Part shown: positions 11,710 to 42,800 of the stretch, in pieces
Position numbering within the stretch: the first letter of the stretch is position 1
Layout: every line of letters begins with the position of its first letter
IMG/VR virus record: IMGVR_UViG_3300033066_001102
Coordinates: 1-64,000 of that record
Origin: a virus
Lineage: Duplodnaviria > Caudoviricetes
DNA length: 64,000 nt
Reading direction: 5' to 3' (one strand)
Program-made: the position numbers and the translations under genes
The notes under the pieces: generated by a model
What the model was told of the DNA's origin: nothing
The model's database searches: none
The model's input: only the letters and a program-made list of their open reading frames with translations

Positions 11710-11894
11710 TGGAATATCTATACCACGGTGACCGCATCACAGATCCAAGGTTGAAGAAGAAAACCTGCAGCGCCATACGGTTAAACGGTAAGTGTATTCG
11801 GGGAACAATGGGAACGATGCTGGTCCGATTTGAAGATGGCGAGAGAGCAGTAATCATTGCAAAACTTTTAAGAAAAATAAAATCATGTGGATAA
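11709..11894 (+). CDS. Small basic hypothetical protein
   Basis: GTG start sharing its first base with the upstream TAG. Confidence 0.5.
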   Translation: MEYLYHGDRITDPRLKKKTCSAIRLNGKCIRGTMGTMLVRFEDGERAVIIAKLLRKIKSCG

Positions 11895-13042
11895 TCCCTT
11901 CCAATCACCCGCTTTACTCTCAATTTGCACCGGATCTGGTGGACTCGAAAGAGGAATTGAGCATGCAACCGGCGCTGCAGTTCGAACAGTCGCTCATGTG
12001 GAAATCGAAGCCTTTATCATTGAAAACCTGGTGCGCCAAATGGAACAGGGTATATTGGATCCCGCACCTATTTGGACGGATGTTAAAACCTTCTTCCCAT
12101 TTGCACACCACTTTCGTGGAAAAATTGACGGCATCGCTGCAGGATATCCTTGTCAACCCTTCTCAAAAGCCGGTGAACGAAAAGGAGAAGATGATCCAAG
12201 ACACCTTTGGCCGTATATATTCAGAATCATTGAAGCAGTACGACCTGTTTGGTGTTTCTTCGAAAATGTCAGAGGACACCTCACAATGGGATATGACCAA
12301 GTTTACAAAGACCTTAGAAGTATTGGTTACTCAGTTGAGTGTGGAATATACTCAGCGCAAGAAGTTGGCGCAACACATGAGAGAGAACGGCTTTTCATCC
12401 TTGCCGTGGCCGACTCCTACCGCATGGCAGAGCGGGGAAGAACCGGATACATTCGAAGCTCGCAGACTGCGCCTGAAAGAGAAATGGGGGAAAAAAACCG
12501 GGAACGGAGCAGGGGAAACATTGAACATATCAGTAAAGAAGTGGACAACACCAACGCTATCATCAGCGAAGCAGGGAGAGAACGAGCCCGATGGGAAACG
12601 ATCGCAGACTTTGATTGGTCAAGTGCGCGGCAGCAATTGGGCAACACCACTGTCCAGGGAAGTGAAGAAAGGATTCCAGACAAGGGCAGACAGAGAAAAA
12701 AACGGGCAGCAGATCGGACTGATCACCCAAGTATTAGAAGCAGAGAACTGGGGAACACCAAGGAGCAACGAACACAAGGGATCGGGACCGAAAGGCAGCA
12801 AGGTACAGCAGAAGATGATGGATCAGCAATACCTGTCAGCCCAGGTGGAGGGTACAGATGGCCTGCTCCCAAAGGAGTCTTCCAACATCCGTGGGAAGCG
12901 CCCCGTCTTGTCTCCGGCATGGACTGCACAGTTAATGGGTACAACTTTAGAGAGGATCTTCTTCGCATGTTGGGAAATGCCGTTGTTTACCAGACAGCGG
13001 CCAAAGCATATCTTGACTTACTCTCGAAATTCAGATGAATGA
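11885..13042 (+). CDS. Overprinted alternative-frame protein with WxTP repeats and a motif-IX-like tail (putative second MTase subunit)
   Basis: 385 codons open across the entire MTase gene; WPTP, WTTP, WATP and WGTP repeats; VLSPAWTAQLMG; ATGA overlap with the next gene. Confidence 0.7.
   Translation: MWIIPSNHPLYSQFAPDLVDSKEELSMQPALQFEQSLMWKSKPLSLKTWCAKWNRVYWIPHLFGRMLKPSSHLHTTFVEKLTASLQDILVNPSQKPVNEKEKMIQDTFGRIYSESLKQYDLFGVSSKMSEDTSQWDMTKFTKTLEVLVTQLSVEYTQRKKLAQHMRENGFSSLPWPTPTAWQSGEEPDTFEARRLRLKEKWGKKTGNGAGETLNISVKKWTTPTLSSAKQGENEPDGKRSQTLIGQVRGSNWATPLSREVKKGFQTRADREKNGQQIGLITQVLEAENWGTPRSNEHKGSGPKGSKVQQKMMDQQYLSAQVEGTDGLLPKESSNIRGKRPVLSPAWTAQLMGTTLERIFFACWEMPLFTRQRPKHILTYSRNSDE
11887..13038 (+). 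CDS. DNA (cytosine-5) methyltransferase catalytic polypeptide
   Basis: Motif I LSICTGSGG, IV GYPCQPFS, VI FENV, VIII HERERLF, X LGNAV; GTG start with an in-frame TAA at 11878. Confidence 0.9.
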   Translation: MDNPFQSPALLSICTGSGGLERGIEHATGAAVRTVAHVEIEAFIIENLVRQMEQGILDPAPIWTDVKTFFPFAHHFRGKIDGIAAGYPCQPFSKAGERKGEDDPRHLWPYIFRIIEAVRPVWCFFENVRGHLTMGYDQVYKDLRSIGYSVECGIYSAQEVGATHERERLFILAVADSYRMAERGRTGYIRSSQTAPEREMGEKNRERSRGNIEHISKEVDNTNAIISEAGRERARWETIADFDWSSARQQLGNTTVQGSEERIPDKGRQRKKRAADRTDHPSIRSRELGNTKEQRTQGIGTERQQGTAEDDGSAIPVSPGGGYRWPAPKGVFQHPWEAPRLVSGMDCTVNGYNFREDLLRMLGNAVVYQTAAKAYLDLLSKFR

Positions 13043-13322: not shown

Positions 13323-13775
13323 ATGAGCAAGCAGAACGTAAAATGGTCGCAGGAGGAATACAAGCAATGGCTACAGCGCACTGCTGAACAGCACCTCAAT
13401 CACAACAACCAATCGGTGCAAAATATCGAAAACAAACAGCCTGAAAAAAAATCCAAGTATTTCAACAAAAAAGTGGAAATCAATGGTGAATTGATCGACT
13501 CCAAAAAAGAGGCCGGTGTGTACATGAAGCTCCTTATGAAACAACGAGCAGGACTGATCACCAATCTGGAGCGCCAAGTACGATTCGATTACACCATTAC
13601 CTTTGCAGCAAATGGGAAAGAATGGAAGAAAACCGGATTTTATCGCGCCGACTTCACCTACAACGAAAACGGACAATTTATTGTTGCTGATGCAAAGGGT
13701 ATGCGCACGGCTGAGTACAACAGAAAAAAGAAAATAATGAAAAAACTTTACAACATTGAAATCTTAGAACTATGA
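13323..13775 (+). CDS. DUF1064-type PD-(D/E)XK endonuclease (possible resolvase)
   Basis: KYFNKKV...DSKKEA...LERQVRF...YRADF...DAKGMRT..Y..KKK. Confidence 0.8.
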   Translation: MSKQNVKWSQEEYKQWLQRTAEQHLNHNNQSVQNIENKQPEKKSKYFNKKVEINGELIDSKKEAGVYMKLLMKQRAGLITNLERQVRFDYTITFAANGKEWKKTGFYRADFTYNENGQFIVADAKGMRTAEYNRKKKIMKKLYNIEILEL

Positions 13776-24861: not shown

Positions 24862-27800
24862 TCAATTTTTATTTTCTCTTAGTTTGGCCCTATAGCGATA
24901 TTCACGCTGTTCTTTAGGAGTCATTTCTTGACGATTTTGCTCCTTAGAATAGTACATCGCATCCATCAATTCTAAGTAAAGATAATCACTAATAACATTC
25001 AAATCCCTAAAACTCTGAAGCTCAGTCTTAATCTGCGCATCGGTAGCGCCCCTTAATTCTTCCTTTATATATGCTGGCTTCGATTCTGCCGGCAAGTTAT
25101 GAATGAACTTTTGACGCTTACTCAAAGGAAATTTAGGCATTTCCACAACCTTTTTGGTTTGCTGAAGTATCAATCGTTCAGATTCCGGTGTCTCAGGATC
25201 CGCAATTTTAAAGTTGATAGAATCCATGGCTTCATCTTTCGGCATTGTGCTGTATTGTGAATCGTACAATTTTTGAGCATCTTCTTTAACTTTAGCCATA
25301 TCATACTGTTGTTCATGTAAAGAGGAGTAGTCGGATGGTTTTACTGCCATTGACCGCTGATTCAGAGTATTCAAAATCTCCTTATTAATGAAAGGAACCT
25401 GAATTACCAGGTTACCCATTGCCAATGCCGCCCGTGCCATATTATACTTTGCCAGCGCATCATCATCCGGATTACCATTGCCGACCACATCCATTGCATC
25501 TAACACCGGTTGGTACAGCTTATCTATCGGAGTAGTGAACGGCATAAAGATATTGTACACCTGCTTTGCCTGCGCCCATTCCGTTGGTAATGGGAAGTTT
25601 GGACTGTATAAAAGCGCATCATGGTATGAATTATATGCATGCCCTATAAGATTTTCAGTTACCCGCTTATTAGCCATTTCAGCTAATGCATTGAAAATGA
25701 TTTTGTTGAAGTAAGGCAGCCTTCCAAGTGCGAATAATTGCAATCCTGCAGAAAACAGATTCCTTGCCCAATACTCTTTAGTGTACAGATCTTCCAATTG
25801 CGCCTTTTTCTCTTTCGGATCTCCACCCATGCCGATAATCAATGCGCTGATCAACTTTGACATTACATTAAATGCCATATTACCTGCCAGATATCCCATG
25901 GTAATTCCAGCAGACTTAAGCCTTCCGTATTCACCTTTACCAGAAATTAAATCAGAAGCATATCGTTGAGCATACGCCGTTTGTTGATACATAAGTACTC
26001 CAAGGAAGTAACGGAACCGCCCCATGGCATACGCATACCATGCTTTTCGCTCATCTTCATTCTGAAAACTATATACCTTTTCTGCCGCTCTTCCCCGGTT
26101 TGAAACACCAATGGATTTGTCCACAATCTTCTCAGCATAGTTCCCCGCTGCAGTAACTACTTCCGGAGGCAATGTTGTGGTAATATCTTGAACCGGAATA
26201 TTTTCATCGTACCCGTGATCCTTTAGGTATTGCCGGAAAGAAGCTACCCATATCGGGAAGGAGCTCGGATAGTCGCCTATACCAATACTAAGTTGCTGAA
26301 TCAAATCTCCTGTCCTACGAACAGCATTGTGCTGCCATGCATTGAAAGTGTCAAATGCAAGTGTTTCTAATTTACTTCTGTTACGATGGTCGTACTTCTT
26401 CATCGTCGTCCTCGACTCTTTCCAGTGTTTCAATGGTGATAGGAACGGATTGTGCAGGATCATTGATTGCCCACCTGGCATATCAACAAGCTCGGTGTGT
26501 GTGCTAAACCGTTGATAAATACTGAATCCATTATTACGCATAAGTTCCAACCATTCCCTTGAGTGTGAAAAGAAATCACGGCCATTTTTATAAATGATTT
26601 TAATTGCATTATATGGATTGCTTGACAAGTAAGCAGCTGCAATGGTCCAGTTAGGAATATATTCCGCAAACCGCTTTACACTGACAAGCGCCTGACCGGT
26701 GAGGGACCGGATTAATGCATCTACAATCTTCTGTCCTGTTGACTTCGACAATTCGTTAAATCCTATCTCATGCTTCAGCATAGTCATTACCTGATCGCGC
26801 AACGTAGTAGCAAGGTCTGAAGTCATTGCATCGGTAAAGGTCGGGGTGATCATTGCCCCAAATACTTCACGGATCGGTTCTGTCAAGTGTTTATCAAACA
26901 AAGTCCCTTCAATGCTTCCGAGTAGTGACTGATAGGCAAAAGAGTAAAATACCTTTTTCGGATAGGTACGCTGGAACATGGATGATGCCTTTGTATTCAT
27001 TATCGCATCCCGAAGCCCATCGCCAGATTCCATAGCAGCAATCTGATTCTCCAACTTTGCTTCATCCACGTTAACACCTCCCAATATGGTCATAGGATGG
27101 TAGTTCTCGATGAAGTTTACATTTTCACCACGCACGTACATCTGCAGGTATTGAACGATTGGTTGCAACCGATCTTCGACAAGGTCATGCAAACCGTTTG
27201 CAAAGGCTTTTTGCGCAGGAGTGAAAGAATCCCATGTTGCCTGAAGATCAATTACCCGTTCTTCTGTATCATCGGTTGGTGTTGTGAATTTTAATGCATT
27301 GTAGGCATCCAGGTAATCCATTTCAAATACATCGGAATAGAATGAACTCTCACGCATGTTTGCGATGCTGTCATTCAGTTTCTTTTTGAAATCAATATCC
27401 GGACGGTTACGATCCACCTGATTTGCAAATGCCCACATCCTAACCATCATTGCCGCCTTTGATCTGGAATTTAGACCGGTACCAAGCGCGTCGTATAGTT
27501 TATCCAATTGATGCTTAACAGTCTGATAGTCCGTCCGGAATTGTTCAATGGCTGTAGTGATCGGCTGAATATAATGCTGCCAGAAAGGAGCGTCATATTT
27601 CATATTTGGATCGGGCCTTAATAGAATCGTATCCCACAATGTCTTAGGATTGCGTTTCAGTTCTTCTGCTAATTCCCGGATATTCTTAAAGTAAAATTCC
27701 GTTTCCTGCTTCATGTTAACCACCGTCGCTGCCTTCTGCTGCTTACGTGCAGGAAGCACCCAATCCTTGTCCATGTGACCGGAAACAAGTTGGTTGTGAT

Positions 27801-30800
27801 ACAGATTGTACATGACGCCGTAATAGTTCTTCATCTGATTGAACTTAAGTTCATGATGATCGATATTTACGAATTCCCGTACTTTCTGTTGTAATTGCTT
27901 GTCAATTTCCGGATGCCGCACAATAGAGGTAGGATCAAAATTATTCTTCATTTCGTCAATCAAATCACTCCACCTATTCCGTTGCGCCTCCTCTCTATTT
28001 GCCCTTGCCTCTGACGATTCCCGTTCTTCAGGTTCCACCGTTTCAATCTCATTGGCCCAATCAGTCACTTCACGGATCACTTCACGGATCAGGTTTACGT
28101 CAGGAAGGAGCTCCCTGCCTTTTGCCGCCAAAGGATTAATTGCCTGGAGATATTTAAACAATAAGTTCACCGGTATCCGTTGCCTACTTTTTATTATGGG
28201 CAGGTTCACCAGTTCCATTCCAAGCATACGGATATCTGGAAACTTCTGTTGTTTAAGCAGATTGCGCCGTGCATCACGCTTTGCGCGAATTGCTTCTCGG
28301 TACTGTTCCCTGTAAATAAACTTGTCAATGGCCTGTTCAAACCGTGTGATGGCTGTAGCAAGCCTTGCAGGATTGCCCTGAGACTTGCGGATTTTGTCAA
28401 TGGCATCGAGAAACAATCTGGTATCACTGAGCCCAATACTCTTTACCCGTTGTGTGATATAATTGGTCAGGTTATCCAATGCCGTTTCCATGTCACCAGG
28501 TTGAGCATTGTTCACGAACTTCCTAATCCGTTTTAGATAGCTGTCTAAGGAATCAATATCCGCTGCAGAGCTTATACCATAATCATTGAGCATCCGGATG
28601 AAATCATCCATTTTATACGGATTACCCCTTTTCGCCTGATCACGGTACCAGTTGGTTGTTTCGATGTAGTTGAGCGCATTTCGGATTGCACGAGCAACGC
28701 TGAATCCTGCCTTAACGCTATACCGGATAATTTTAAGAGCGCCTTTCAGGATCAACTTTGGAGGAAGCAGGTATGCTTTGCCGCCACTACCCATCTTCGC
28801 AAATTCTGAATCTACGCTATCATATAATTGTTTTAATCTATTGTCTATGCGTTCTTGAAGACCAGCCGATTTTGAATTGTCCGGAAACTGCATGAACGGT
28901 CCTTCTTCTTCTTCTTCAGTTCCGGCTCCCAATCCTTTAACCTCACCATCCTCGGTGTCTTCACTTTTTGCAGTTGGCTCATCCGCATCCATTTTTTCAT
29001 CTTCTTCCCGCTGCTTACGTTCTTGATCTGATTCTTTCTTTCCTTTCCTTTGCTTCCGCTCTTCTTTTCGCTGCTCCCTTTCGCGATCATCCGCAATTAA
29101 TCTTTGTATGATTTCCAATAGTTCCATTGAGTTACTATCAAGTTCACCTTCCCCATCGGATGTTATGCCCTCCTGTAATAATTGCGCTTCCAGTTCTAAA
29201 ATCTGCTTCTGCATCATATCCATTTCTTCCATTTTTTCAAATGGCTGCCCGATCTGTCCTTTAATCTTGTCAATTTCAGATTGATACTCGCTGATCCGTG
29301 TATCAATCGTTTCTTGGTCAAATGAGATATCCTTGACCTTGCCATAAATCCTATTGCCCAGTGATATGCCTCCATTAAAATTAAAGGTGTCTTCCATCCG
29401 TTCACCTAAAAATAACTGTACCTCGCTACCAATCGCATTAGTATCAAAGATGGGCTCTGTTTTTTTATCATAATTAGTACCACGAGCCTCTTCGTTAAAC
29501 ATTCCTGTTTGACCACCATCAACCCAAGCACCAAATCGGTTTGTTATAACGGCAGTCATGTGATCGCCAAATTTAATTACCACCTTCACATTACCACCTG
29601 CATCACGGCCTTTCTCATGTAACTTCTGGATTGCCTTTGCCTGCGCCTCATCAATGGCCTGTCCGAATTTTTCTTTATGAACAATACCATCAATCGTAAC
29701 AGTAGTGATTTTACGATCTGATGACTTCATCTTGCCATCTTCCGTTCTTTCAAAATCCATCCAGTTGGGTAGATCTTCCATGAAAGCATTCAAGAATGGC
29801 TTGCGAGAATATAGTGCTGGTATAATCGCTTCCAGTTCCTTCACGCGGCCGGCCAGTTTACCTTCGCGAAGACGATAGTTGTTATATGCTGCCTCAAGCT
29901 GCCTAAGCATCCGTTGACTTTCTCGCAATAACAGTCCAGTCGAACTGCCAGCAAGCATTGATGCCATAATTCCATTTTGAAGATCACCATCAGAAATATC
30001 AATATCGTCATGAGCGCTCCAGTCAAGAAAATTGGAAAGCGCTTGATTAATAAATTTTCCTTTTATCTCTAATCGTTGATAGGCCAAAGCATCCATTGTA
30101 TCTTTCACGCCAACCTCTTTAACCATCACTGGCCGATCAAACCCACCCTCCTCTATTGATAATGCGCAAAGATTTCCCTGTCTTATGCCACGTCCATTAC
30201 GTTGTGTCATTTTAGAAGGAAGATCAGGGGCATCTACATGCCATAAGGCAACTACCCTTTCCTGTACATTTATACCTACACCAATTTTATCCGTGTGGCC
30301 AATAAGAAATCTAACCTTCCCCTCATTCATATCCTGCATGACAAGTGCTCGCCTTAACCCATCAAACTTATCATCTGCAATTACTATTTCGGAAGGAAGA
30401 ACCCCATTGGCAATAAGATTTTTCCGAATTTCCTGATGAGCATTGAATGAAGAATCTCTGGATCTAATCGAATCGCAGAATATCAATTGAGTTCCCTTAA
30501 TGCCAGTTGTTTCATGATACACTTCAGCAGCGCGAATGGCTGTCTGATTCAATTTGCTATTAGGATCTTCCGGATACTTTTTGTATTTGTTATTAAGAAG
30601 CCGTACATCAACAGCCGCTTTCTTTGCTAATCCATAAAGCACAATGGGCAACCAAATAAGTTTAGCTTGTTGAGACCCTTGCAAATTATCCCACCATACC
30701 GCAAGGCTTCGAATAGTATCAATAACCTCTTTCGTAGCAAAAGACATTTCTAATACTATTTGCTCCACCTCTTTATTTGGTACAAGCCGACTTTCCTTGA

Positions 30801-33800
30801 ACTCTAAAATATCTTCATTGGTAACTACATCTACATTTGTTCTAAATGCAGCAACCAGCGCAGGTAGATTTATAAACTCACGCATTCTCGGCAATTCTTT
30901 ATAAACACCTGTAGCAGTAAGCTCTAATGATTGCGTGATATGCGTAAAGGATGCGGCAAAGGAATCAAAAGTATCAATACCTAATTCCTTTAACATGGCA
31001 GGTGATATATACCTCATCACTGTCCACATTTCAGCCATTGTATTTGTAATCGGCGTACCGGAAGCCATTACCACATTACGCCCGCCGTTTTGCTGCATAA
31101 TAAACCGCGTTTTCGTATATGCATCCCAGGCAATATTTGATCGTTGCACATCAATGCCTCTTATATTTGGAAGAGAAGTATCAAAACCTACTTTTTTGTA
31201 CGCATCCGCTTCATCTAAAATTATCGCATCAATACCCATCTCTTCAAAATAAAATGTTGCATCCTTCTTTTGGTTATTGATTTCAGCAAACTTCCTACGA
31301 TCTCTCAACGTCTGCCGACCTTCATCTTTCACCCTACGAGTCTTTTTATCAGCAATAGGCTTTGCGCCCAATTTTTCCATTCTTTTTTTCAACTTCGCTA
31401 TATCCCTTGAAAATTGCTTTTTTTCTTCATTATCCATATTCGCCTTCTGCGCCTCCAGATTAGCAATTTCTGCTTGTAACATTGCCCGTTCTCGATCTGG
31501 ATCATTGGGTATTTTTTCCAAGAAACTTCTTGGAATAATCACAACATCCCAAGCACCATAAGCAATTGATGCAAACAACCGTTGCCTGTTTTCTTTTTGC
31601 ATATCCTTCTTTGTTGCCATTAGGATACGTTTACCAGGATACAGTTTTGAGGCAGAAGCATTGAACTGTTCAAATGTTGGATTATGAACAACGATCAAAG
31701 TTTTATTTGCCAACTTCAACCGCTTCCATTCCATTGCAATAGAAATCAGCGTGTAGGTCTTACCGCTACCTACATCATGCGCGAGGTATGTTGACCGGCG
31801 CAGCGATCGGAACGCGGCCCTGGATTGATGCTGCCGCAGTTTGAATTCTTCACCATCAATAAATTCTGATTGTTCCGGAAATCTTTTTATAACTCTCGTT
31901 GATTTATATTCAACAAAACCCTGTACTTCATTATTAAAAGATTGCTCCAGTTCATCGTGAATGCTCTCAGTTCGTTTCACCCATGCTTCGAATTCCGATT
32001 TCAGTCCTTCCAGTTTAAGTCTCGCTTCAGCAGTCTTTTCATGATCAACTATTCGCCTTTTCCCTTCTGCGTCAGTCGGATCAATCTTATACACTTTTAC
32101 ATCACCATTATTTAACGCTTTCTCCATCATTTCTGATGCATCGTAAATTATTTTACCTGTTTCTGGATTTTGGTATCCCCAGGTTGCCTCGCCTAATGAA
32201 TTAGAACTCCTGTACTTATTGAATTTTACACTGTATCTATTTTTTGAAACATTCTCATTGTAGGTTACATCAGCCTGAATATCCTGGTCTTTCATAAACG
32301 AGCTGTACACAGACAGCGGAATCCACGTTGAGCCAATTCCAGGTGTGATAAGATGCATTGGTGCCCATGGTGGCAATACTTCTTTTAAAGAAGTTACGTT
32401 ACGTTCAAAATTTGCGTCTGTTAGTGCGGCTAATTCTGCCTGTTTTAATTTCTCTCGTACATTTCCTGAGATATATTCATCATGATCAATCAACATGCCC
32501 GTAATTGGGTCCACAAAAGCAAGGCGCTCCTCCAAAATAAGCTGCCTTGCGGCATCTGGATTTATATCAAGCAATTTTGCAACATAATCAATATTGATTG
32601 TCCCCTTGTAAATGATCGAAATATTTACTGCATCACTTATGCTTTCCGCACTGGTAGGTATTACGTAAGGATAATTCACCCGACGACTAAGAATATCACC
32701 TGGAGCAATTTCGTACTTATAATAAGCATTGCCGGCTTTATTTCTTTCGATTTTTTGAGTGATTTTTTCCAAAGAATAAACAATAGCAAATTCAGAGTCC
32801 TCTTTTAAAAATGATAGCTTATTGTTACGGTTAATCCGACCATACCTCTCGTGAAAATTTAGGTAAGCAATTCGCAATTTTCTTCGTTGCTCATTCAATT
32901 CATCATCTGTAAACTTTACTGATCGCTCACTTTGTACCAGTTTTTTTGCTAACTGTTTAACATTAATAAACAATTTAAACACCGTTTCTACCGAAACAGA
33001 TTTGCCACCGGATAGCGTTACTCTCTCATTTTCAAAATCCACATACACGCGAACGCCATTCTCTGAAGTGTATATTTCACCATTTTCATCAATATAATAG
33101 CCACCATCTACATCTCGCTCTTCTGAAAACAAATCTTCTGTTGTGGTTGATGAATCTGAACCTGTCGTATTAGATATATTTTGCGGCAGTTTATCAATAG
33201 CGTTTTCAATCATGCCATTTAGATCATCTGAAGTGGGAACCAGTGTATTATCATTAGCTGTATTAAGACCACCCCTACCCGCTTCATGTGCCAGGCGCAT
33301 TTCACCCATCATCATTTCGGGATTATCATGGAAATACTCATTGATAAACTGCGTGTAAGGATCACCCTCATCGTCTACTGTTTCACGGTGTGGCACGGCC
33401 ATACTCCATAACTGTGCTTGTGGATGGGTGCGACCCTGATCAGTCCGTTTGCGGAAAATCAGTATATCGGTAGTAACTTCAGTGCCCGCATTCTCTTTAA
33501 ACGCATTCCAGGGCAACCGAATAGCCCCCATAAAATCCACTTCCTCATGCTCATTCATGTAGTCACGAAACTCCTGAATAGTCCCCCTGTCCATCGTATT
33601 GGATGTAGTGATTAATACACCAAGTCCTCCTGGCTTCACCATGCGCATGCTCTTACCAATAAAATAGTTGTGGATATTCCACTTCGTCAAATCCTCAAAG
33701 TTTTTATCATACACCTTGATGGGTCCAAAAGGAACATTGCTAATGGCAAGATCATACGACGCTGGTTGCAACCGCGTTTCTTCGAATCCGGAAACCCGCA

Positions 33801-36800
33801 CATTTGACTGTGGATATAATTTTGTCGCAATACGTCCTGATATCAGATCCAGTTCAACCATGTCCATCTTGCTGTTAGGAACAAGGTTACGAGGCATAAG
33901 TCCATTGAAGTGACCTACCCCCGCAGCCGGCTCAAGCACCCTACCACCACGGAATCCCAATCGTTCTGCGATGGTCCACATATGGCTAATGATATCTTTC
34001 GAAGTGTAATGTGCGTTTGTGGTAGACGCAATGGCAGATTTCAGTTCTGATGGTGTCAGCATCTTTACAATCTGATTGTGCATGGATAGGTACTTATCTT
34101 TCCATGATGTTTGCCCACGTTCCTGAGCCTTGTTTACATCCAGTACCGTAGCCAATCCCCCCCATCCAGTAAACTGTGCAAGTATTGTTTTTTCTTCTGG
34201 TGTTGGATTACGGTCAGCCTTTTCAAGTTCCTTCAATAGTTCAATAGCTTCAATATTGGCGCGGATTTTACCCATCTCGCCTTTAGGAACTAACTCTGTT
34301 GATTGCGTTATTACAAAGTTTCTGTTAGCAGGATCTATTGGATCTGCAGTTTCTTCAGAGCTTGATTCAGTAGATTTTGATTTAGGGTTGCTTCTGATGT
34401 TTCTACCGGACTTAGTACGACGCTCGCCTCCTCCTCCGCTTCCGCTTCCGTTGCTCCCAGTTTCAACGCCTTGGTCCGTACCTGTTCCGCCCGTGTCAGT
34501 TTCCATTGGAGATATCTCCTCAGTTTCATCGGGTACTTCACCAGGTATGTTAGAAAACTCTGGTCGGTCGCCGCTAAATAGGTCAGATGTTGTACCGCTT
34601 CCTGGCTTTGTTCCAGGGGTTCTTCCTCCACTAATGTTTTCAGTGTTTTCATTTTTTACAGGTAGTTTAAAGTTACTAACTATTTTTTTATCCGTCAGTT
34701 GATCGGAGATTTCATCTGGTGCACCATAGGCATAAGAGCCATACGCTTTCTTCAGATACGGTAGCATCATTTCTGCTTTCTGATCACCGAACTTCTGCCT
34801 GATGCCATTGACAATGCTCTCAAACGATGTCATTCCGGCTTTGACAGCACTTTCCACCATCTTGATTCCTGCATCATTCAGTTTGATTTCCTTCTCATTC
34901 ATTGCACCTTTGGTGCGCACCTTACTTGTCAGGAATCTTTCTACCAGTCCCTCCTTTGATTTGTATTCACCAGAAGCGCGTAATACTTCACGCATCCCCT
35001 TGATAATGGGATGATAGTTGGGCAGTCCGAAAATCTTTTTGATTGCTTCAATTAATTCCTGATAGTATGCTTTGATTTTCTGCCATACAGTATGGGAGAT
35101 GAATCTATTGCCCAGGTACTCACTGGCATTCATGGCCCAGAATTCAGAAGGATTGGCATATTGGTAATCATCACGATTCAGTACACCATTCAAGAAATCC
35201 AAAAACACCTGATCCTGAATATCTTTATCATTAGAGATCGTTGATAAATGTAGGTTGCGTAATGCTTCTCTACGTTCTGTAGTAGCATTTCTAAGTTGCT
35301 TATCGTATTGTTTTGCCCACTCAACAAAAATTGCCTTTTGCGCTTCATCCGACAACATTCGCTCGGTGTGGTGCAATATCTCATGCACGATCACATAAGG
35401 ATCATTATTGCTTTTGATAATGCGAACCAGTCGATTGAATGGAGAATATGTCCCCGCCATTCCCTTATAGTCATTGGTGACGATGGAGATGCCCAGGTCA
35501 GATGCAACAAGAGGATTTTTATTCAATAACCATAATGCGAATTCCGCGCCTACCTGAGTTATTTCTCCTTTGCGCTGTGCATTGAGTATTCGCTCTTTGA
35601 CATATACGGGACCGCGCTTCCTGTCCCTGATTCTCTTGCTCTGATTGCGCTCAAAGTTTTCATCGAGCAATCTTGCCAACCGGATGGAGAATTCTTTCGG
35701 ATCCAATTCACCGGAACTCAGTTCTCTGTCGAGTGCTTTTAGTTTGGCAATGAAACTGAATCGTTTTTCTTTTTCCTCACTCGCATACGGGATCGAGAAC
35801 ATATTTTTTACGATGTCGCTTCCATCATCTGTCAGATCATCGAACAGATCTCCGAACTCATCCATTGCGGCATCAACCTCTGATGGAATGTCAACAGGTG
35901 GGTATGCCGTTGGTTTCCCTGCTTCAAAATATGTTTGAATTGCGCCAATATGTCTTCGTACATAATCATCCGTATTTTCAATTTTTCCATTAGCATCTTT
36001 TTTCAATGGAGGAATACCAATCTTTTCAAAGAGAAGATTGAACTTATTAAAGTCAATGGTGCCAATGCCTAACAATTGAGTTTGCATCCACGATGAAAGA
36101 TCTTGTGGACGATTCCTGCCAATATTAAAGCCAATAGTTTCAATATCTGATTCTACGCTTCGCCGCAGATCCATCTTGATAGCAGATCGCAACACAAAGT
36201 TTACAATATCCTCCACTTTAGTATCAGCGCTGATGTCTTCCGGTTTATATTCATTCTTACCGATCACCAACTTTCTTCCAAACATATTTAGCATCACGGC
36301 CTTCACTTCCTGCCAGAATTCTTTAATCAGATCAATCAGTGATTTATCTTCCAATTGTTTCCGTGCTTCCAAGTCAATTGCCCTGGCAATCATTTCATGC
36401 GTCTTCATCCTCGCGCTGGCATTCGGATATTTGCTGTCAACAAATTCCTTAACCTCCTTATTCTTTCGGACAGACTTCTGCAACCGGTCATACAATTCCG
36501 GGTTGCGTTTCTCTATAGCGAGAATAAATGGATGTGAGAATGCTTCGTGAATTGGAGTGGTTTCATCGGCAACACCACTTACAAAGTATGCTGTTTCTGT
36601 TGCATCATCATAAAATCCGGCCGGCATCGGACCGTCATACTTCTGCATCCTGTATCGCTTAGTTGCGTCCATGATAGCATCCATGTATTCCTTATCGGCA
36701 GCAAGAATCTCAACCGTATATGCCTTGTCGATTGCATTATTCTTAACAATGTAATCACCTGGAGTAATTGTTTCTTTTTGGCTATTTAGTGTAGCTTTAT

Positions 36801-39800
36801 CTGCATCACGCTTTTTCCTTGCATCCTCTTTACGCTTATCCCGCTTTTCACGCGCTTGCTTTGTGATTGTGTCATAAATACTTTGTTTCTCCCTACGTTG
36901 GCGCATTTGCTCTTCATGCGCACTTTTTCCAGCCTGCCTTTCGCGTTCATATTGGCGTTGCCTTTCTTGCTGTCGCCGCTGCCAGTCACGCATTTGTTCT
37001 TCTTGATCCCTGCGGAAGTCTTCATAGGTATTCCGCTGTTGATGACCAGATCTTCCAGAACCCTGATCACCTGGTCTGCGAGCATGACTATCACTGATAA
37101 TACCCTTGTTATAGTTGTCATTCACTACATTGAGGTACTTCATCAGCTCTAACGCATCCGCACCCTTGTCTGGATGATATTTGAATGATAACTTTCGATA
37201 TGCTTTACGTGCTTCTTCTTTATTGGCAACTGTCCGATAGACCTTTAGGATAAATGCTTTTGCCTCGTTTTGATCAACATTATCGAATAAATCAATGTCT
37301 TCCAATATGCCGAAAAAGAAATCGCGATCCGAATTTAGAATTGCTTTGGCTTCGTCTTGAGTAACTGTTTTGTAATTGATGCCAAATCGTTTCTTAAGCG
37401 CTTCACCGATAGTATTTAGTTCCTGATCGTTGAGTTTCCTATTATTTAATTTTGTTTGCCTGCGATCAATAGCATTCTTAATTCTTGTTGCAGGATGAGT
37501 TTCACGATTGCCTTTTGGAACCTCATTCCTTGATATGATATTCTTTAGACGGTCCAGTTCTGTTTGACCTGCAGCTTCAATAATATTATCAGGCAATGAT
37601 TCAATATGAGAGTATAAATCTTTGTGCCTTTTAGCTGATGGTGCACGTTTATCCAGTTCCAGATATGCATCATTCCATTGCTTCAAATTAGACCATGTAA
37701 CCCTCGTTCCAGGAGTAGTAATTTCTTCAGGTCCAGTAGCAACAGTTTCGGTACGACCGTCAATGATCCGCATTTTCTCAGCGGCCATCCAGTTCATCAT
37801 AATCTTTTGTCCTGCAGCATTTGCTTCTTCCCATGTAGCATAACGGGCATCGTTACCATTCCATTTACCACCTTCACCTTTAATAATCAGTTCAACACGA
37901 TATGGGAAATTCTCTACATCTTTTTTCTTATCAACCGGTTCAGGCGCTTCTTCTTTCTCGCTTGCAATCACTTCTGAAAACTTCTTTGGTGTCCAATACA
38001 GATCCAATTCAACCGGCAGTGACTTCATTTCCTCAATGCTGATGTAGCCCCATTCGCCGTCTTCGCCAAACTTCGCATAACCGAACGCCTGGTACTGTTT
38101 CCCCTTATCTTTCGGAGCATCATCCTTGGATCCCTTGTCTTTCTCGATGATGTACCAATCCCTGCCGCCAATGAAGTAGTGCAGGTACACTATTTTGTCG
38201 CCTTCTTCCTGGTCATCCGTTTCATAAGTGGCTGGCATTCCTTCAATCAACTTGTCCAGTTTGTCCAGCATGTCGATGAAGAACTCGGATTCCTCACTCT
38301 TTAATTCGTTTTGCTGCAGCGATTCCAGTTCCGCCTCCGGCATGAAGTTGACGATATTCGGAGTGATAACGGACTTAGCAGTTTTTTCAACCTTAGAGGG
38401 TTTTACTTCTTCCTCTTTGGCTTCGGTGGTATTGTCCGTACTCGTTTTTTTATCGGTGGTAGGGGTAAATTCTTTTTTGAATAATTCAACCTGATCTTTG
38501 GGAACTTCAATGGCTACTTTTTTAAGTCCTAATTCTTTTGCTGCAAGGATTCTATGCCTGCCATCTTCAAATCCTAATTTGCCATCATTAATACTTGCAA
38601 CGCTTGGTTCAAATGTAACTTTCGTTTCAGTCCGTTCACCTGTTTTGGGATGAACCCATCTATTATCATTCAGATAATTACTAATGAACTCTTTTGCTTT
38701 TTGAACCCTATTCCCAATCTGATTCTTTTTATTTGTTACATCATAATCCGGTTGATCTTTTGACTGCCGTTCAAGTATCTTGTCAGTATCCACAAAAACA
38801 ATTTCATTCTTCTTTGGATTCCTTAATGTGTATTCAACGTCCTCAAGTGCATTAGGATTTTTGCCTACGTCTTCTTTTGGCACTCCGAACTCTTCAAGTT
38901 GTTGTCTTGTGTCAGTAGGTTGACTTTCTGGAACTACTTCTTCTTGTGAAAGTCCTTCTGCGATATTGGTTGCTTCGACATTTCTTTCACCGCCTGCAAT
39001 CGCTCCTCGTTTTTCTTCTGGTGATTGAGAGGCGGCTTTGCCCCGTATTCCATTTTTATTTGCCAATTCTTCTATTTTAGCAAGCAAATCCGTTTCAGAT
39101 AAATTTAAAATATCTTCTTTATCTAAAGGGAAACTTTGATCTGCTATATCTATGTATTTTTCACCTGTATGAATATTCGTTCTTTCTGTTTCTTTTCTAT
39201 ACGTTATATGCCAATTTCCTCCTACACTAAATAATTTTTCAAAAACATAGTCCCCTATTTTATTAGGTAATACCTTTCTTAAAATATTAGATGTTTTCTT
39301 TACATCTTCTTGTATATTTTTTTCGTCAAATTTTTCAAATGCTTTTTGTTTTTTAACATCTACATCATTCAATGCACTTTCCCCTTTGGCTTCTGGCTGT
39401 TGTATTTCATTTTTAGCAACGCCAGCGCCACCTTGCTGCTCTTGTCCAATTTCGTCTTTGGTTTCTTCGGTTGTGATTTCATTGATCAGAGTTTTTGTTT
39501 CGTCAGTTAATGGTACTTCCAATGTAAGTTCCTCTATGGTCCCATCAGGATTATCATCAAGCCATGCAAGAATATCTTCTTGCTCAGAGGAAGGTATCTG
39601 TGATGCTTTTTTGCGATATTCTGCGAATGTTTTTAAAAGAGTTCTGTCAAATTGTATCCCTGTAATGGCCGTAAATTGCTGCCCTAATCTTGATGTTAAC
39701 GGCCCAAATAATTTAGATTCATCCAGACCATTAGGATACTTAAGCATAAAGTCCCACAAATCCTTCTCTGTAAATCGATCAAAATCTTCTCTAAGATTGA

Positions 39801-42800
39801 GATCTGAAACAGATTGATCTATACCCTTTGCATTTTTACCGTAGTAATTATCTCTAAGCGCCTGCCAATTAGGTAAATCACTAAGATCATATCCGAAATA
39901 TCTCCTTACATCTTCATTGTTAAAACTGATGTGCGCATCAGCCATCCGTCGCTCTTTATCACTAAATTGCAACGACTCACCTTCCATTTGATCCATGTAG
40001 GCCGCACCAATCAATATTTCTAATGGATTCTCGCCTTCAGATCCGAGTTTGTGATAATAGTCTTCTTCATTATTGATATCCGACACATCAAGCTCAGGAG
40101 TACTTGAATATTTTTCAACCAGGTAACCAGAAACAACTTTATCATAAATAGGACTTCTTCGATCAACTTCTTTACCCGAAACCGAATTTTCAAATATTAT
40201 AGAGCCACTTTTCGATTTCTTAACCTCATATTCAATGTTCTCTACCGATATAAATTCCTTGTTACCGATAACAGATAATTTCGCCTTGTTTTTATTTTCA
40301 GTACCTGGAGTGATCTCTTTTTTGATATCTTCAAGTTGATCAATCAATTCCTCATCAAGATCATCTTCAGGGAAAGGAATATCTACAGGAATATGTTCTA
40401 CCGGATCACCAATGTCAATTCCAATAACAGGTGGTACTACGTCGATAATAGGAACAGTTTGACTCTCTGGCATCCCCGCTGCTACATTAGTCTGCTCCTT
40501 TATCTTTCTATTCAATTCAGCCAGTAGTGCTGAAGCATGCGCCGCAGGAATATTTTTATACCGGTTCACTTTCATTGCTACTTCTGCCTCATTCATGCCA
40601 GGAGCACCCACCTTCTTAGCCGTTGCCCTCGTTTCAAAAGCATTTAATACTTGTTCCGCATAAATCCTTTCATCGCCCGCTGCAAATTTCCCGAGATTCT
40701 TTTTTCTGAAATCCCTGATGGACATTACGCCGGCATTGCGAAGTGCATACAGTTGTCCCAGTTTTCCGTTGCTTATATTCACAGCAACAGGATTCTGATT
40801 CACGTCGAAGTAACGAACAGTTGATTTTGCTTTTGGCAAGAATGATCCCACTGATGCTATAGGAGCAAACGCCCCGATTCCCAATGCAGTAGTAGCAAAA
40901 AACTCTTTATTATACCCTTCAAAAACGCCCTGATCACCGGTAATTATATTCGATAACGGACTATTTACCCATTCTTCAAATTGCTCACCAATGATATTTG
41001 AATATGAAAGGTTATGCTTAAATATCTCTTGTATTGCTTCATTCGGCTCAATACCATGACGCGCTAACCAGTAACCAACAGTCAGTCGCTTCATAAAATC
41101 AGGATCCTTCAGCACCTTTTTTGAGAAAGCATTACCCATCCATGGAACAACCTCTCCAATTCGCTCAGTAGCAAATTCAGCCCATGAAGTACCAAATGCT
41201 TTTGCAAAAGCAGTAGAAAAGTCTTCTCCTCTGCCCTTTTGCGATTCATCCAATTGGTATAACAATTTAGTTCCGTCAGGCGAAAAAGCCATTACCATTC
41301 CCGGTTGCATGCGCTCCAGTGTGGTGTTAATATACATTTGAGGATTTGCAGCCGTTTGCGCTATTCCACCAATAAGGCTTGCCAATACCTCGCTTGAACG
41401 TCCCGCTGCCGATTCTGCAAATATTACCGAACCGGCCGATTTAGCACTTTGTGCGGCGCTGATTTTTCCAAGATCAAGAATGCTTGTACCCGCTTTTGCA
41501 GCAATCTTTTGCAGACCTTGTCCTACTACTGTTTTTGCGGAAGAATAAACACCACTTGTAGCTGCAAATTCACCAATGTAAGGGAACATTCCGGTTGTTA
41601 TTTGCCCGGCCGTGTACCAGTAATTCGGTGTAATCTGGCTTTCAATATCATTCTTTGCTGTTTCTGATTGCAACAGCAATGTTTCAATAGGAGATAAGGC
41701 CTTGCCATCGCGAACTTTATTCTTGATACTTAACAGATTGATGTTGTCTGGAATGTCAGCAATAGATTTTATAAAAGGAATAAAATCGGTCATTCGTTTA
41801 TTTATCGCACCTTGATAAAACCATCCCTGATAGTTTTCTGGCAATGTCCCAATTTTGACGAGATTTTCCCGTGTCTGCAGCAATAGTCTGTATTCCTTGT
41901 ATTTATCTATGGATTCATTAGATAGCGATCCGTTTTTTTCAATACCATCATTCCTTGCTACATTTAATTCCTTTTTTAATTCGGCTATTTGCTTATCGAT
42001 TTCTGGCAATGTCTGTTCTGCATAGCTGCGAAGCGAAAAGGTAGTTAAGTTACCCTTGTCAGTGATATATGCCGGCCTTACTACATGGTAATAAAATTGC
42101 TTTCTGGCTTCAAAAATATCCTCTGGCGACACGCCTGCATTATGAAGCTCTATTGCTTTATTTTGCCAGGCATGATCCATCAACTTCTTTTTCTCTTCAT
42201 AGGATTTTCCTTGAAATTCTGGACTTTCGAAAGCACTTTGCGCCTTCCGTATGTAATCGCCACCGAGAATGGTCTTAGATGGGCTGATTACGGCATCAAT
42301 TTTTAAATTGAATGCATCATCAATTTCTGTTTTAAGGGGAGTAAAATATTTACTTTGCCATAGATCAGTGATTTTGGCATTATACACCTGATTTAACTCA
42401 GCACCTTTTTGTCTAACAAAGTTTTGAGCATTGGCATTTCCTTCAGGTGATGAAAGATCAAATGTTTTAGAGGCTTCTACTTTAAGGTTTTGTATTGCCG
42501 CTTCCAATGATTTGTTTAATGCAAGATACTCTGGATCTCTTTGAAAAATAGAATCGTACTTCGACTGAATGGGACGAATAAATGAAGTGTCTGCGTACAC
42601 CTTATTGAGATTATTAAGAATCTCAGCCCGTGGCTTAAGAAAGCTGTCTATTTGTGTAGGTAATCGATATTGCTGACCATAGAAAGTATTTGATGCCGGC
42701 TGATTAATAACATCTTTTAGGAAGTTTGTGTTTTTAGCTTTGAGTACTTCTTCATGCATCACACCTAACCCAACCAACTTATCTCTCATTCCATCGGCAT

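Follow-up and report, generated by a model that had tools for sequence, protein, structure and literature searches.

Can one stretch of phage DNA encode, along its whole length and on a single strand, two subunits of the same enzyme? The question is raised by a locus at positions 11885 to 13042 of the IMG/VR record IMGVR_UViG_3300033066_001102 (Duplodnaviria; Caudoviricetes), of which positions 1 to 64,000 were analyzed (hereafter the window), that is, most of a 74.6-kb phage record rated about 95% complete by CheckV. Two reading frames, designated A and B, run through this locus, and A reads as the catalytic part of a DNA (cytosine-5) methyltransferase. On the comparative evidence set out below, we consider it probable that two fully overlapping genes on the same strand encode a split methyltransferase of this type, with A and B as the subunits of one enzyme.

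Two frames are open from end to end

A preliminary description, prepared from the letters of the window alone, had placed a nested ATG and GTG at the head of the locus, stops at 13038 and 13042 and two frames open in between, and re-reading of the sequence bore out these coordinates. The ATG at 11885 (frame B) and the GTG at 11887 (frame A) are nested within ATGTGG, and neither frame contains an internal stop. Frame B is the +1 frame of A, codon position 3 of A falling on position 2 of B.

11885..11890, + strand: nested starts ATGTGG, the ATG leading into frame B and the GTG (11887) into frame A; A/T-rich leader, no clear Shine-Dalgarno sequence
11887..13038, + strand: open reading frame (ORF) A, putative alpha subunit of 383 aa, stop TGA at 13036-13038; large domain, disordered linker, motif X
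11885..13042, + strand: ORF B, putative beta subunit of 385 aa, stop TGA at 13040-13042; overprinted N-terminal part, W.TP array, motif IX, short tail

Synonymous shuffling of the codons of A produced a mean of 6.2 stops in the +1 frame, shuffling of those of B a mean of 13.2 stops in frame A, and a stop-free sequence was obtained in neither series (0/5000 each). The +2 frame of the locus contains 23 stops. For the 25 further long ORFs of the window, +1 open runs span 34-191 codons, compared with 384 at the locus.

These figures bear on the possibility that B is an untranslated shadow ORF, open through composition or codon bias or through an assembly artefact. Such a reading could draw on the purine-rich middle of the gene and on similarity in alternative frames, which homologous genes are known to show as an artefact in tblastn and hidden Markov model searches. 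It is at odds, however, with shuffles that keep both amino acids and codon usage and still give 3-13 stops, and with the closed +2 frame of the same genes; a purely compositional artefact is ruled out by the +2 control together with the shuffles. We return to this reading with the comparative data.

The ATG of the next gene, at 13039, overlaps the stop of B (ATGA). This overlap, and an A at position -3 of the ATG of B, had been put forward as hints of translation of B. Both are present in the sequence, but they carry little weight in bacteria, and the stop of A abuts the same ATG.

Frame A carries the catalytic motifs

Frame A matches PF00145 with an E value of 4.8e-34 and 118.7 bits (cutoff 22). 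Against the full-length model TIGR00675 it scores 79, below the cutoff of 100.65, which fits a missing small domain. The motifs I, IV, VI, VIII and X assigned to this frame in the preliminary description were each located in it.

11914..11943, + strand: frame A, motif I, LLSICTGSGG, S-adenosylmethionine (AdoMet) binding; C14, G16 and G19 invariant in alignment A2
12142..12165, + strand: frame A, motif IV, GYPCQPFS, catalytic Cys; GYPCQ invariant in alignments A2 and A3
12256..12270, + strand: frame A, motif VI, FFENV, invariant across alignments
12376..12405, + strand: frame A, motif VIII, HERERLFILA; the first WPTP of B starts 2 bases past its end
12418..12858, + strand: frame A, linker, residues 178-324, R/E/G-rich, unconserved and predicted disordered; kept open
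12859..12906, + strand: frame A, conserved block WPAPKGVFQHPWEAPR (family consensus WPARPGEEQYEWEEPR) in alignment A3, overlapping the N..GK.R segment of B just before motif IX
12955..12987, + strand: frame A, motif X, DLLRMLGNAVV, residues 357-367; modeled by AlphaFold as confident C-terminal helices

Motifs I, IV, VI and VIII fall in residues 10-173, and this catalytic and cofactor-binding set, invariant across alignments A2 and A3, lies entirely in frame A. The putative target-recognition domain (TRD) and motif IX are not in the same chain: they are located in frame B, while motif X is in A. In agreement with the low-complexity middle and the lack of a clear motif IX reported earlier for frame A, residues 178-324 are 15% R, 11% E and 11% G, and only an unconserved, predicted-disordered spacer was found between motifs VIII and X.

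In an AlphaFold model of A (31 homologues), the predicted local distance difference test (pLDDT) score is 85-97 for residues 1-188, 33-45 for residues 191-351 and 86-96 for residues 355-382, which are helical. Foldseek matches of the model to M.HaeIII and M.HhaI were limited to about 175 columns, around half of either enzyme, corresponding to the large domain. As modeled, A is a confidently predicted large domain with the helices of motif X and with the small domain missing. The linker is gappy and unconserved in the alignment, and its sole recurring feature, L(A/G)(N/D)(S/T), is the A-frame reading of the W.TP codons of B. Judged by the alignment, the linker is kept open yet shows no sign of constraint as A protein. 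The best PADLOC model for frame A was DruM2/DruM, the Druantia cytosine methylase (E 2e-30), with a match reaching into the linker as far as residue 280.

Frame B carries W.TP repeats and a motif IX-like segment

11885..12406, + strand: frame B, residues 1-174, overprinted on motifs I-VIII of A; MWI.P N-terminus, several conserved Trp/Arg/Leu, predicted helix at residues 130-168
12407..12760, + strand: frame B, W.TP array, putative TRD; WPTP at 12407-12418, WTTP at 12542-12553, WATP at 12638-12649, WGTP at 12749-12760
12908..12940, + strand: frame B, motif IX-like LSPAWTAQLMG, residues 342-352; family consensus LNPAWVAQLMG

The ordered repeats that had been noticed in frame B beneath the low-complexity middle of A are four W.TP units (W175, W220, W252 and W289). 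The motif IX-like segment, with the consensus LNP.WVE.LMG.P.GWT in other clades, is likewise present, although B does not end in it as had been stated: 33 residues follow. Searches of Pfam, NCBIfam and PADLOC returned no match to frame B, whereas phrog_1008, annotated as "DNA methyltransferase", was matched at 7.8e-20.

The two-frame layout is conserved among phages

A blastn search of the locus against 50,697 phage records gave no matches, relatives being too distant in DNA sequence, and the searches were instead guided by protein. A scan of IMG/VR with a single protein yielded 2 loci, and alignment-based scans were needed. A word-indexed search recovered 323 homologues of frame B, mostly covering 94-99% of B at 35-45% identity. 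Among the 120 closest of these that were listed, none contains PF00145, and those with a source name are called "hypothetical protein". Of 1.84 billion cluster representatives, a profile of B matched 20,891 at E ≤ 1e-3; at E ≤ 1e-30 the number was 2,068. Almost all of these matches start at residue 1. Likewise, in the ESM Atlas, B sits among clusters of viral "hypothetical protein".

To avoid selecting on B, IMG/VR was also scanned with an alignment of the catalytic domain of A only, which matched at least 595 loci, of which 80 were kept. The +1 frame is open in all 80; counted from motif IV, it extends over no fewer than 73 codons upstream and no fewer than 149 (mostly 200-400) downstream. 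The +2 frame, serving as control, is open over 2-34 codons upstream and 6-62 downstream of motif IV (132 in one locus). The same openness is found in phage C75C1 and in Synechococcus phages, despite a B identity of 25-29% and a much higher G+C content. Overall, it spans G+C contents from about 40% to more than 60% in phages of cyanobacteria, Proteobacteria and Firmicutes, a breadth that further counts against a shadow ORF. By these searches, the two-frame layout is conserved in thousands of phage sequences. Assembly or sequencing error was rejected as the source of the two frames, since cultured phages and hundreds of independent contigs share the layout.

About 10% of the A-selected loci (L026, L065, L076, L090 and others) have a different architecture, referred to as type 2. 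Here, A stops at a variable distance past motif VIII and is full of stops beyond, whereas B is open from ATGTGG and has the repeats together with motifs IX and X in a single frame. The family phrog_1008 appears to be of this form, because its match covers both the N-terminal part of B and motif X of A in the window.

Both frames are under amino-acid selection

The preliminary description had proposed examining synonymous-site constraint across homologues. Such constraint was found, synonymous sites of A being frozen where residues of B are conserved. The overlap was analyzed in 133 unique sequences over 167 codons, corresponding to motifs I-VIII of A. In this region B has 0.04 stops per sequence, compared with 3.1 in synonymous shuffles, and the identity between B proteins (in pairs with less than 62% A identity) is 36.0%, compared with 24.9% in the shuffle null. 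Conditioning the null on a stop-free frame raises it only to 25.4% +/- 0.08, and stop avoidance alone is thereby ruled out as the source of B conservation.

At single sites, an invariant Ala of A is encoded by GCG in 130/131 sequences, giving Arg in B (99%); a Gly by GGT in 120/124, giving Val; a Pro by CCT in 125/129, giving Leu; and an Ile by ATC in 122/123, giving Ser. No alternative codon at the Ala, Gly and Pro sites would make a stop, and stop avoidance therefore does not account for their freezing. At the Ile site, ATA alone would give a stop and ATT would not, and ATC is still near-universal. Elsewhere in these sequences, fourfold sites are random, indicating real saturation. Conservation of B exceeds that of A at a dozen columns. 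Since residues of B are frozen at synonymous sites of A, the N-terminal 174 residues of B are evidently constrained as protein, under selection at the amino-acid level.

Nucleotide variability was further compared between zones in 395 close pairs of type-1 genes (70-97% nucleotide identity), with the following values for the three codon positions:

N-terminal zone: A position 1 (B position 3) 0.163, A position 2 (B position 1) 0.102, A position 3 (B position 2) 0.241; A-like, damped
Middle zone: A position 1 (B position 3) 0.309, A position 2 (B position 1) 0.232, A position 3 (B position 2) 0.227; third position of B most variable, no A periodicity
C-terminal zone: A position 1 (B position 3) 0.234, A position 2 (B position 1) 0.133, A position 3 (B position 2) 0.271; mixed

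On this pattern, A and B each have zones of their own in which amino-acid selection acts. Both features expected of a same-strand overprinted pair under dual selection, openness beyond chance of the two frames and amino-acid constraint in each, are thus found here. Site-specific codon freezing beyond stop avoidance, a middle zone evolving with the codon periodicity of B and the conserved ATG of B (see below) all speak against an untranslated shadow ORF. We regard that reading, already contradicted by the comparative data, as very improbable.

A single-chain homologue and a continuum of architectures

The product of gene 70 of mycobacteriophage ShiLan (gp70; JN020143.1) carries, in a single frame, motifs I-VIII, LPTP..D..GG repeats, LAPAFSEWMMGWPAGW and LRIIGNGVVP; its +1 frame is closed. 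Frame A aligns to residues 3-161 of this protein (hhalign E 2.9e-42). The B protein of the type-2 locus L026 aligns to residues 202-378 (E 4e-9), and residues 175-355 of the window's B align in turn to L026 B by BLASTP (E 1e-7). By this chain of alignments, the C-terminal half of B is homologous to the segment of the single-chain enzyme that spans the TRD and motif IX. The order A (motifs I-VIII), B (TRD and motif IX), A (motif X) is colinear with ShiLan gp70.

This homology bears on a second alternative, in which both frames are translated but B acts independently of the methyltransferase, for example as a DNA-binding or anti-defence factor, and A alone is the enzyme. In keeping with such a role, B lacks any match in Pfam, NCBIfam, PADLOC and the PDB as well as a confident fold, and A retains every catalytic motif together with motif X. 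However, the C-terminal half of B is related to the TRD-IX(-X) part of both single-chain and two-gene phage methyltransferases, and in type-2 relatives motif X itself lies in B, leaving A incomplete without it. Moreover, A has a disordered, unconserved spacer where the small domain would be expected, and PHROGs groups type-2 B proteins as DNA methyltransferase. An independent B is, in our opinion, improbable, less so than a shadow ORF.

Intermediate forms were also found. In mycobacteriophage JewelBug (NC_054780.1), the annotation already lists gp81 and gp80 as two methyltransferase genes that overlap, by about 60 codons. Partial overlap is seen in Paenibacillus phage Mock2 and Stenotrophomonas phage SBP5phi2, where an unannotated B opens at codon 62 and codon 38 of A, respectively. 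Full overlap occurs in the window, in Klebsiella phage BUCT711 (vB_KpnP_BUCT711), in cyanophages and in C75C1, whereas the gene of Klebsiella phage phiKp_5 is of the ordinary HhaI-like kind and lacks B. The natural forms make up a continuum, from a single chain through two overlapping genes, type 2 and partial overlap to full overlap. Fused longer forms of the repeat and motif IX region of B (675-2000 aa) were searched for and none was found, which is weak evidence only.

Nested starts and the search for frameshift signals

In the window, frame A has a stop just upstream, and the GTG is the only start before motif I. At the head of B, NTGTGG is present in 117/135 unique loci (99 ATGTGG, 13 GTGTGG and 5 TTGTGG), and in 61 of the 117 the nested GTG is the sole possible start of A. 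A GGAGG-like sequence often lies 6-10 nt upstream of NTGTGG in related loci. In the rest, two start codons lie 5-7 nt from each other, as in ATGACATG or where the ATG of A is 7 nt upstream of that of B. A conserved out-of-frame ATG placed over a true start would be harmful unless its frame is used.

A third alternative is that a single polypeptide is made by recoding: translation would start in A, shift +1 into B after motif VIII and shift -1 back for motif X, with one shift in type 2, yielding a product like ShiLan gp70. The colinearity of the A-B-A motif order with that single-frame protein agrees with this scheme, as do the position of the first WPTP of B directly past motif VIII of A, the lack of amino-acid conservation in the linker of A and two A7 runs in the window's gene. 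Yet no conserved slippery heptamer or homopolymer was found: runs of A/T (at least 7) or G/C (at least 6) occur in only 43/137 genes, at varying positions, and a conserved slippage tract was rejected on that ground. In type 2, the stop of A likewise lies at a variable distance past motif VIII. Recoding also leaves unexplained the openness of B and its conserved ATG and residues over 174 codons before the shift site. Two efficient shifts within one gene would be unprecedented, and relatives with separately annotated overlapping genes exist. A recoded single chain is therefore unlikely in our judgment, if the least unlikely of the three alternatives.

Comparison with known split methyltransferases

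Two reports (PMC2836561, PMC3404938) describe M.EcoHK31I and M.AquI as active two-polypeptide cytosine-5 methyltransferases, shown as such by experiment. As outlined there, the alpha chain of M.EcoHK31I from E. coli (Lee, Kam & Shaw 1995) has motifs I-VIII and X, while beta, with motif IX, has its coding sequence within the alpha gene, in an alternative frame. The N-terminus of beta is required for its association with alpha (PMC2836561). The likeness to the locus in the window is one of description: frame A has motifs I-VIII together with motif X, and motif IX lies in an alternative frame. The parallel with M.EcoHK31I had been drawn in the preliminary description, and it holds for the placement of motif IX in the alternative-frame chain. 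It does not extend to target recognition, as the TRD stays in alpha in M.EcoHK31I, by the account in PMC3404938, whereas B has putative TRD repeats in addition to a conserved 174-residue N-terminal part overprinted on the catalytic domain. Moreover, the beta gene of M.EcoHK31I is short and embedded, with its own internal start, while B is as long as A and starts 2 nt away.

M.AquI of Agmenellum quadruplicatum (Karreman & de Waard 1990) is split in the variable region, with motifs I-VIII in alpha and the TRD, motif IX and motif X in beta, as summarized in PMC3404938. In motif content, type-2 relatives share this division, unlike the window, which keeps motif X in frame A. In type-2 phage loci beta is open from the start of alpha; with M.AquI, the comparison extends to the motif content of the subunits only.

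Among phages, JewelBug gp80 resembles B in being the +1 frame of gp81 and in carrying LPTP repeats, motif IX (RFSEWMMGW) and motif X, but the overlap there is confined to the ~60 codons noted above, the +1 frame being closed over the N-terminal catalytic part, and the two genes have separate starts. The catalytic domain, repeats, motif IX region and motif X of ShiLan gp70 match what A and B together encode, but all in one frame. The "ShiLan domain" (PMC11855218) is an HNH endonuclease hidden out of frame in an insertion in a phage methylase. As at the present locus, a phage methylase gene has its host frame open through a segment that encodes a second protein out of frame. There, however, the segment is a mobile insertion and the protein an unrelated homing endonuclease, whereas in the window the second frame extends over the entire gene and, on our reading, codes for part of the enzyme.

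Insertions were also seen in relatives of B. In frame B of locus L105, about 190 inserted residues separate LNADWVESLQG from RVDRLRLLGNGVVP, between motifs IX and X, and NUMOD4 and HNH_3 domains are present in a B-type protein (P0029). The B-bearing methyltransferase family seems to be a target of homing-endonuclease-like insertions, as is the case for the ShiLan domain (PMC11855218).

Of cytosine-5 methyltransferases that are split or use an alternative frame, two isolated cases are known, both bacterial. Searches of the literature for a phage family whose two genes overlap from end to end, share a start and place the TRD in the second frame found none described; the closest report is that of the HNH endonuclease hidden in a phage methylase (PMC11855218).

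A model for the locus and its weak points

In the model that we favor, one ribosome-binding region would serve two start codons two bases apart (ATGTGG). From the GTG, alpha would be made, with a large domain of motifs I-VIII for AdoMet binding and catalysis, a disordered spacer some 165 residues long and, folding back onto the large domain, the helices of motif X. From the ATG, in the +1 frame, beta would be made, with the overprinted N-terminal part of 174 residues, four W.TP modules replacing the TRD and motif IX. The two would assemble as do the subunits of M.EcoHK31I and M.AquI into one enzyme methylating phage DNA, its likely purpose being protection of that DNA from host restriction. 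If the N-terminus of beta in M.EcoHK31I is a guide, the N-terminal part of B possibly docks to alpha. The overprinted two-polypeptide enzyme with its second subunit in the alternative frame, as envisaged in the preliminary description, fits all comparative evidence obtained.

Several observations weigh against this model. Translation of B and binding of alpha to beta are inferred indirectly. The AlphaFold model of B alone is of low confidence (pLDDT 57.6; predicted template modeling score 0.27), as is the ESM Atlas' own model (pLDDT 0.45), and the profile of B found no meaningful match among PDB sequences. The predicted helix at residues 130-168 has an AlphaFold pLDDT of about 85. The W.TP array is labeled a putative TRD by its position and by homology to ShiLan gp70, not by fold, and the direct alignment of the B profile to the motif IX region of that protein is weak (hhalign E 1.5e-4, 52% probability). 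Constraint on synonymous sites of A could in principle stem partly from RNA-level or DNA-level signals. Finally, an in-frame stop is present in one frame at loci L006, L082 and L145, and in L153 an extra C swaps the contents of the two frames downstream of a homopolymer. These stops and the frame swap between L152 and L153 may be sequencing errors, yet the layout is not absolute.

The lone stop of L145 lies in frame A between motif VIII and the linker; the linker, a WP..QY.WE.PR block and motif X are open downstream, and B is intact. This stop could be an error, a case of readthrough or a three-piece variant. Long homopolymers inside the gene were noted about 322 nt past motif IV in L152 and L153 (C9 in one, C10 in the other) and about 40 nt past it in L005 and L021 (G9). 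The difference between L152 and L153 could be a sequencing error or a phase-variable switch.

Beyond the window, we lean slightly towards the view that a very large family, comprising thousands of clusters at 50% identity, needs one gene to be read twice from nested or adjacent starts. In this family the N-terminal part of B would be a module that arose de novo, for instance as a clamp between alpha and beta, and the ratio of the two subunits would be set by the choice between the GTG and ATG starts.

Annotation, significance and neighborhood

Gene callers disallow long same-strand overlaps, and one frame is consequently kept, more or less at random. In the near-identical Synechococcus phages Yong-M2-251 (L002) and Ssp-JY39 (L003), the gene is entered as frame A, "cytosine-specific DNA methyltransferase", in one record and as frame B, "hypothetical protein", in the other. 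A search of E. coli genomes with the BUCT711 gene returned only 4 partial prophage copies. One of these, in the E. coli PCP07014 chromosome (L173; 2951116-2951877), is annotated by PGAP as a pseudogene ("internal stop").

If the A/B pair were recognized, a large block of viral dark matter would receive a name and predictions of phage methylomes would be corrected. If the proposed split enzyme is real, the arrangement would be among the longest and most widespread same-strand dual-coding arrangements known in double-stranded DNA phages. With about 1.15 kb dual-coded, selection measurable in both frames and natural intermediates at hand, it offers a rare system for studying how overprinting arises and what the code allows, while the nested ATGTGG suggests a simple means of co-expressing two subunits from one ribosome site. 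Naturally split methyltransferases have been used as scaffolds for targeted methylation (PMC2836561), and the W.TP array, lying in a detachable subunit, may serve as a specificity module.

Two other genes of the window were noted. At 24862-43320 on the - strand, within the structural arm, lies a giant ORF of 6152 aa with weak Pfam matches to Eco57I-type methylase, ResIII/SNF2/Helicase_C and DnaJ domains, which presumably resembles DarB-like giant anti-restriction or ejected proteins. At 13323-13775 on the + strand, two genes downstream of the methyltransferase locus, is a DUF1064 gene; in BUCT711, too, a DUF1064 gene lies near the methyltransferase.

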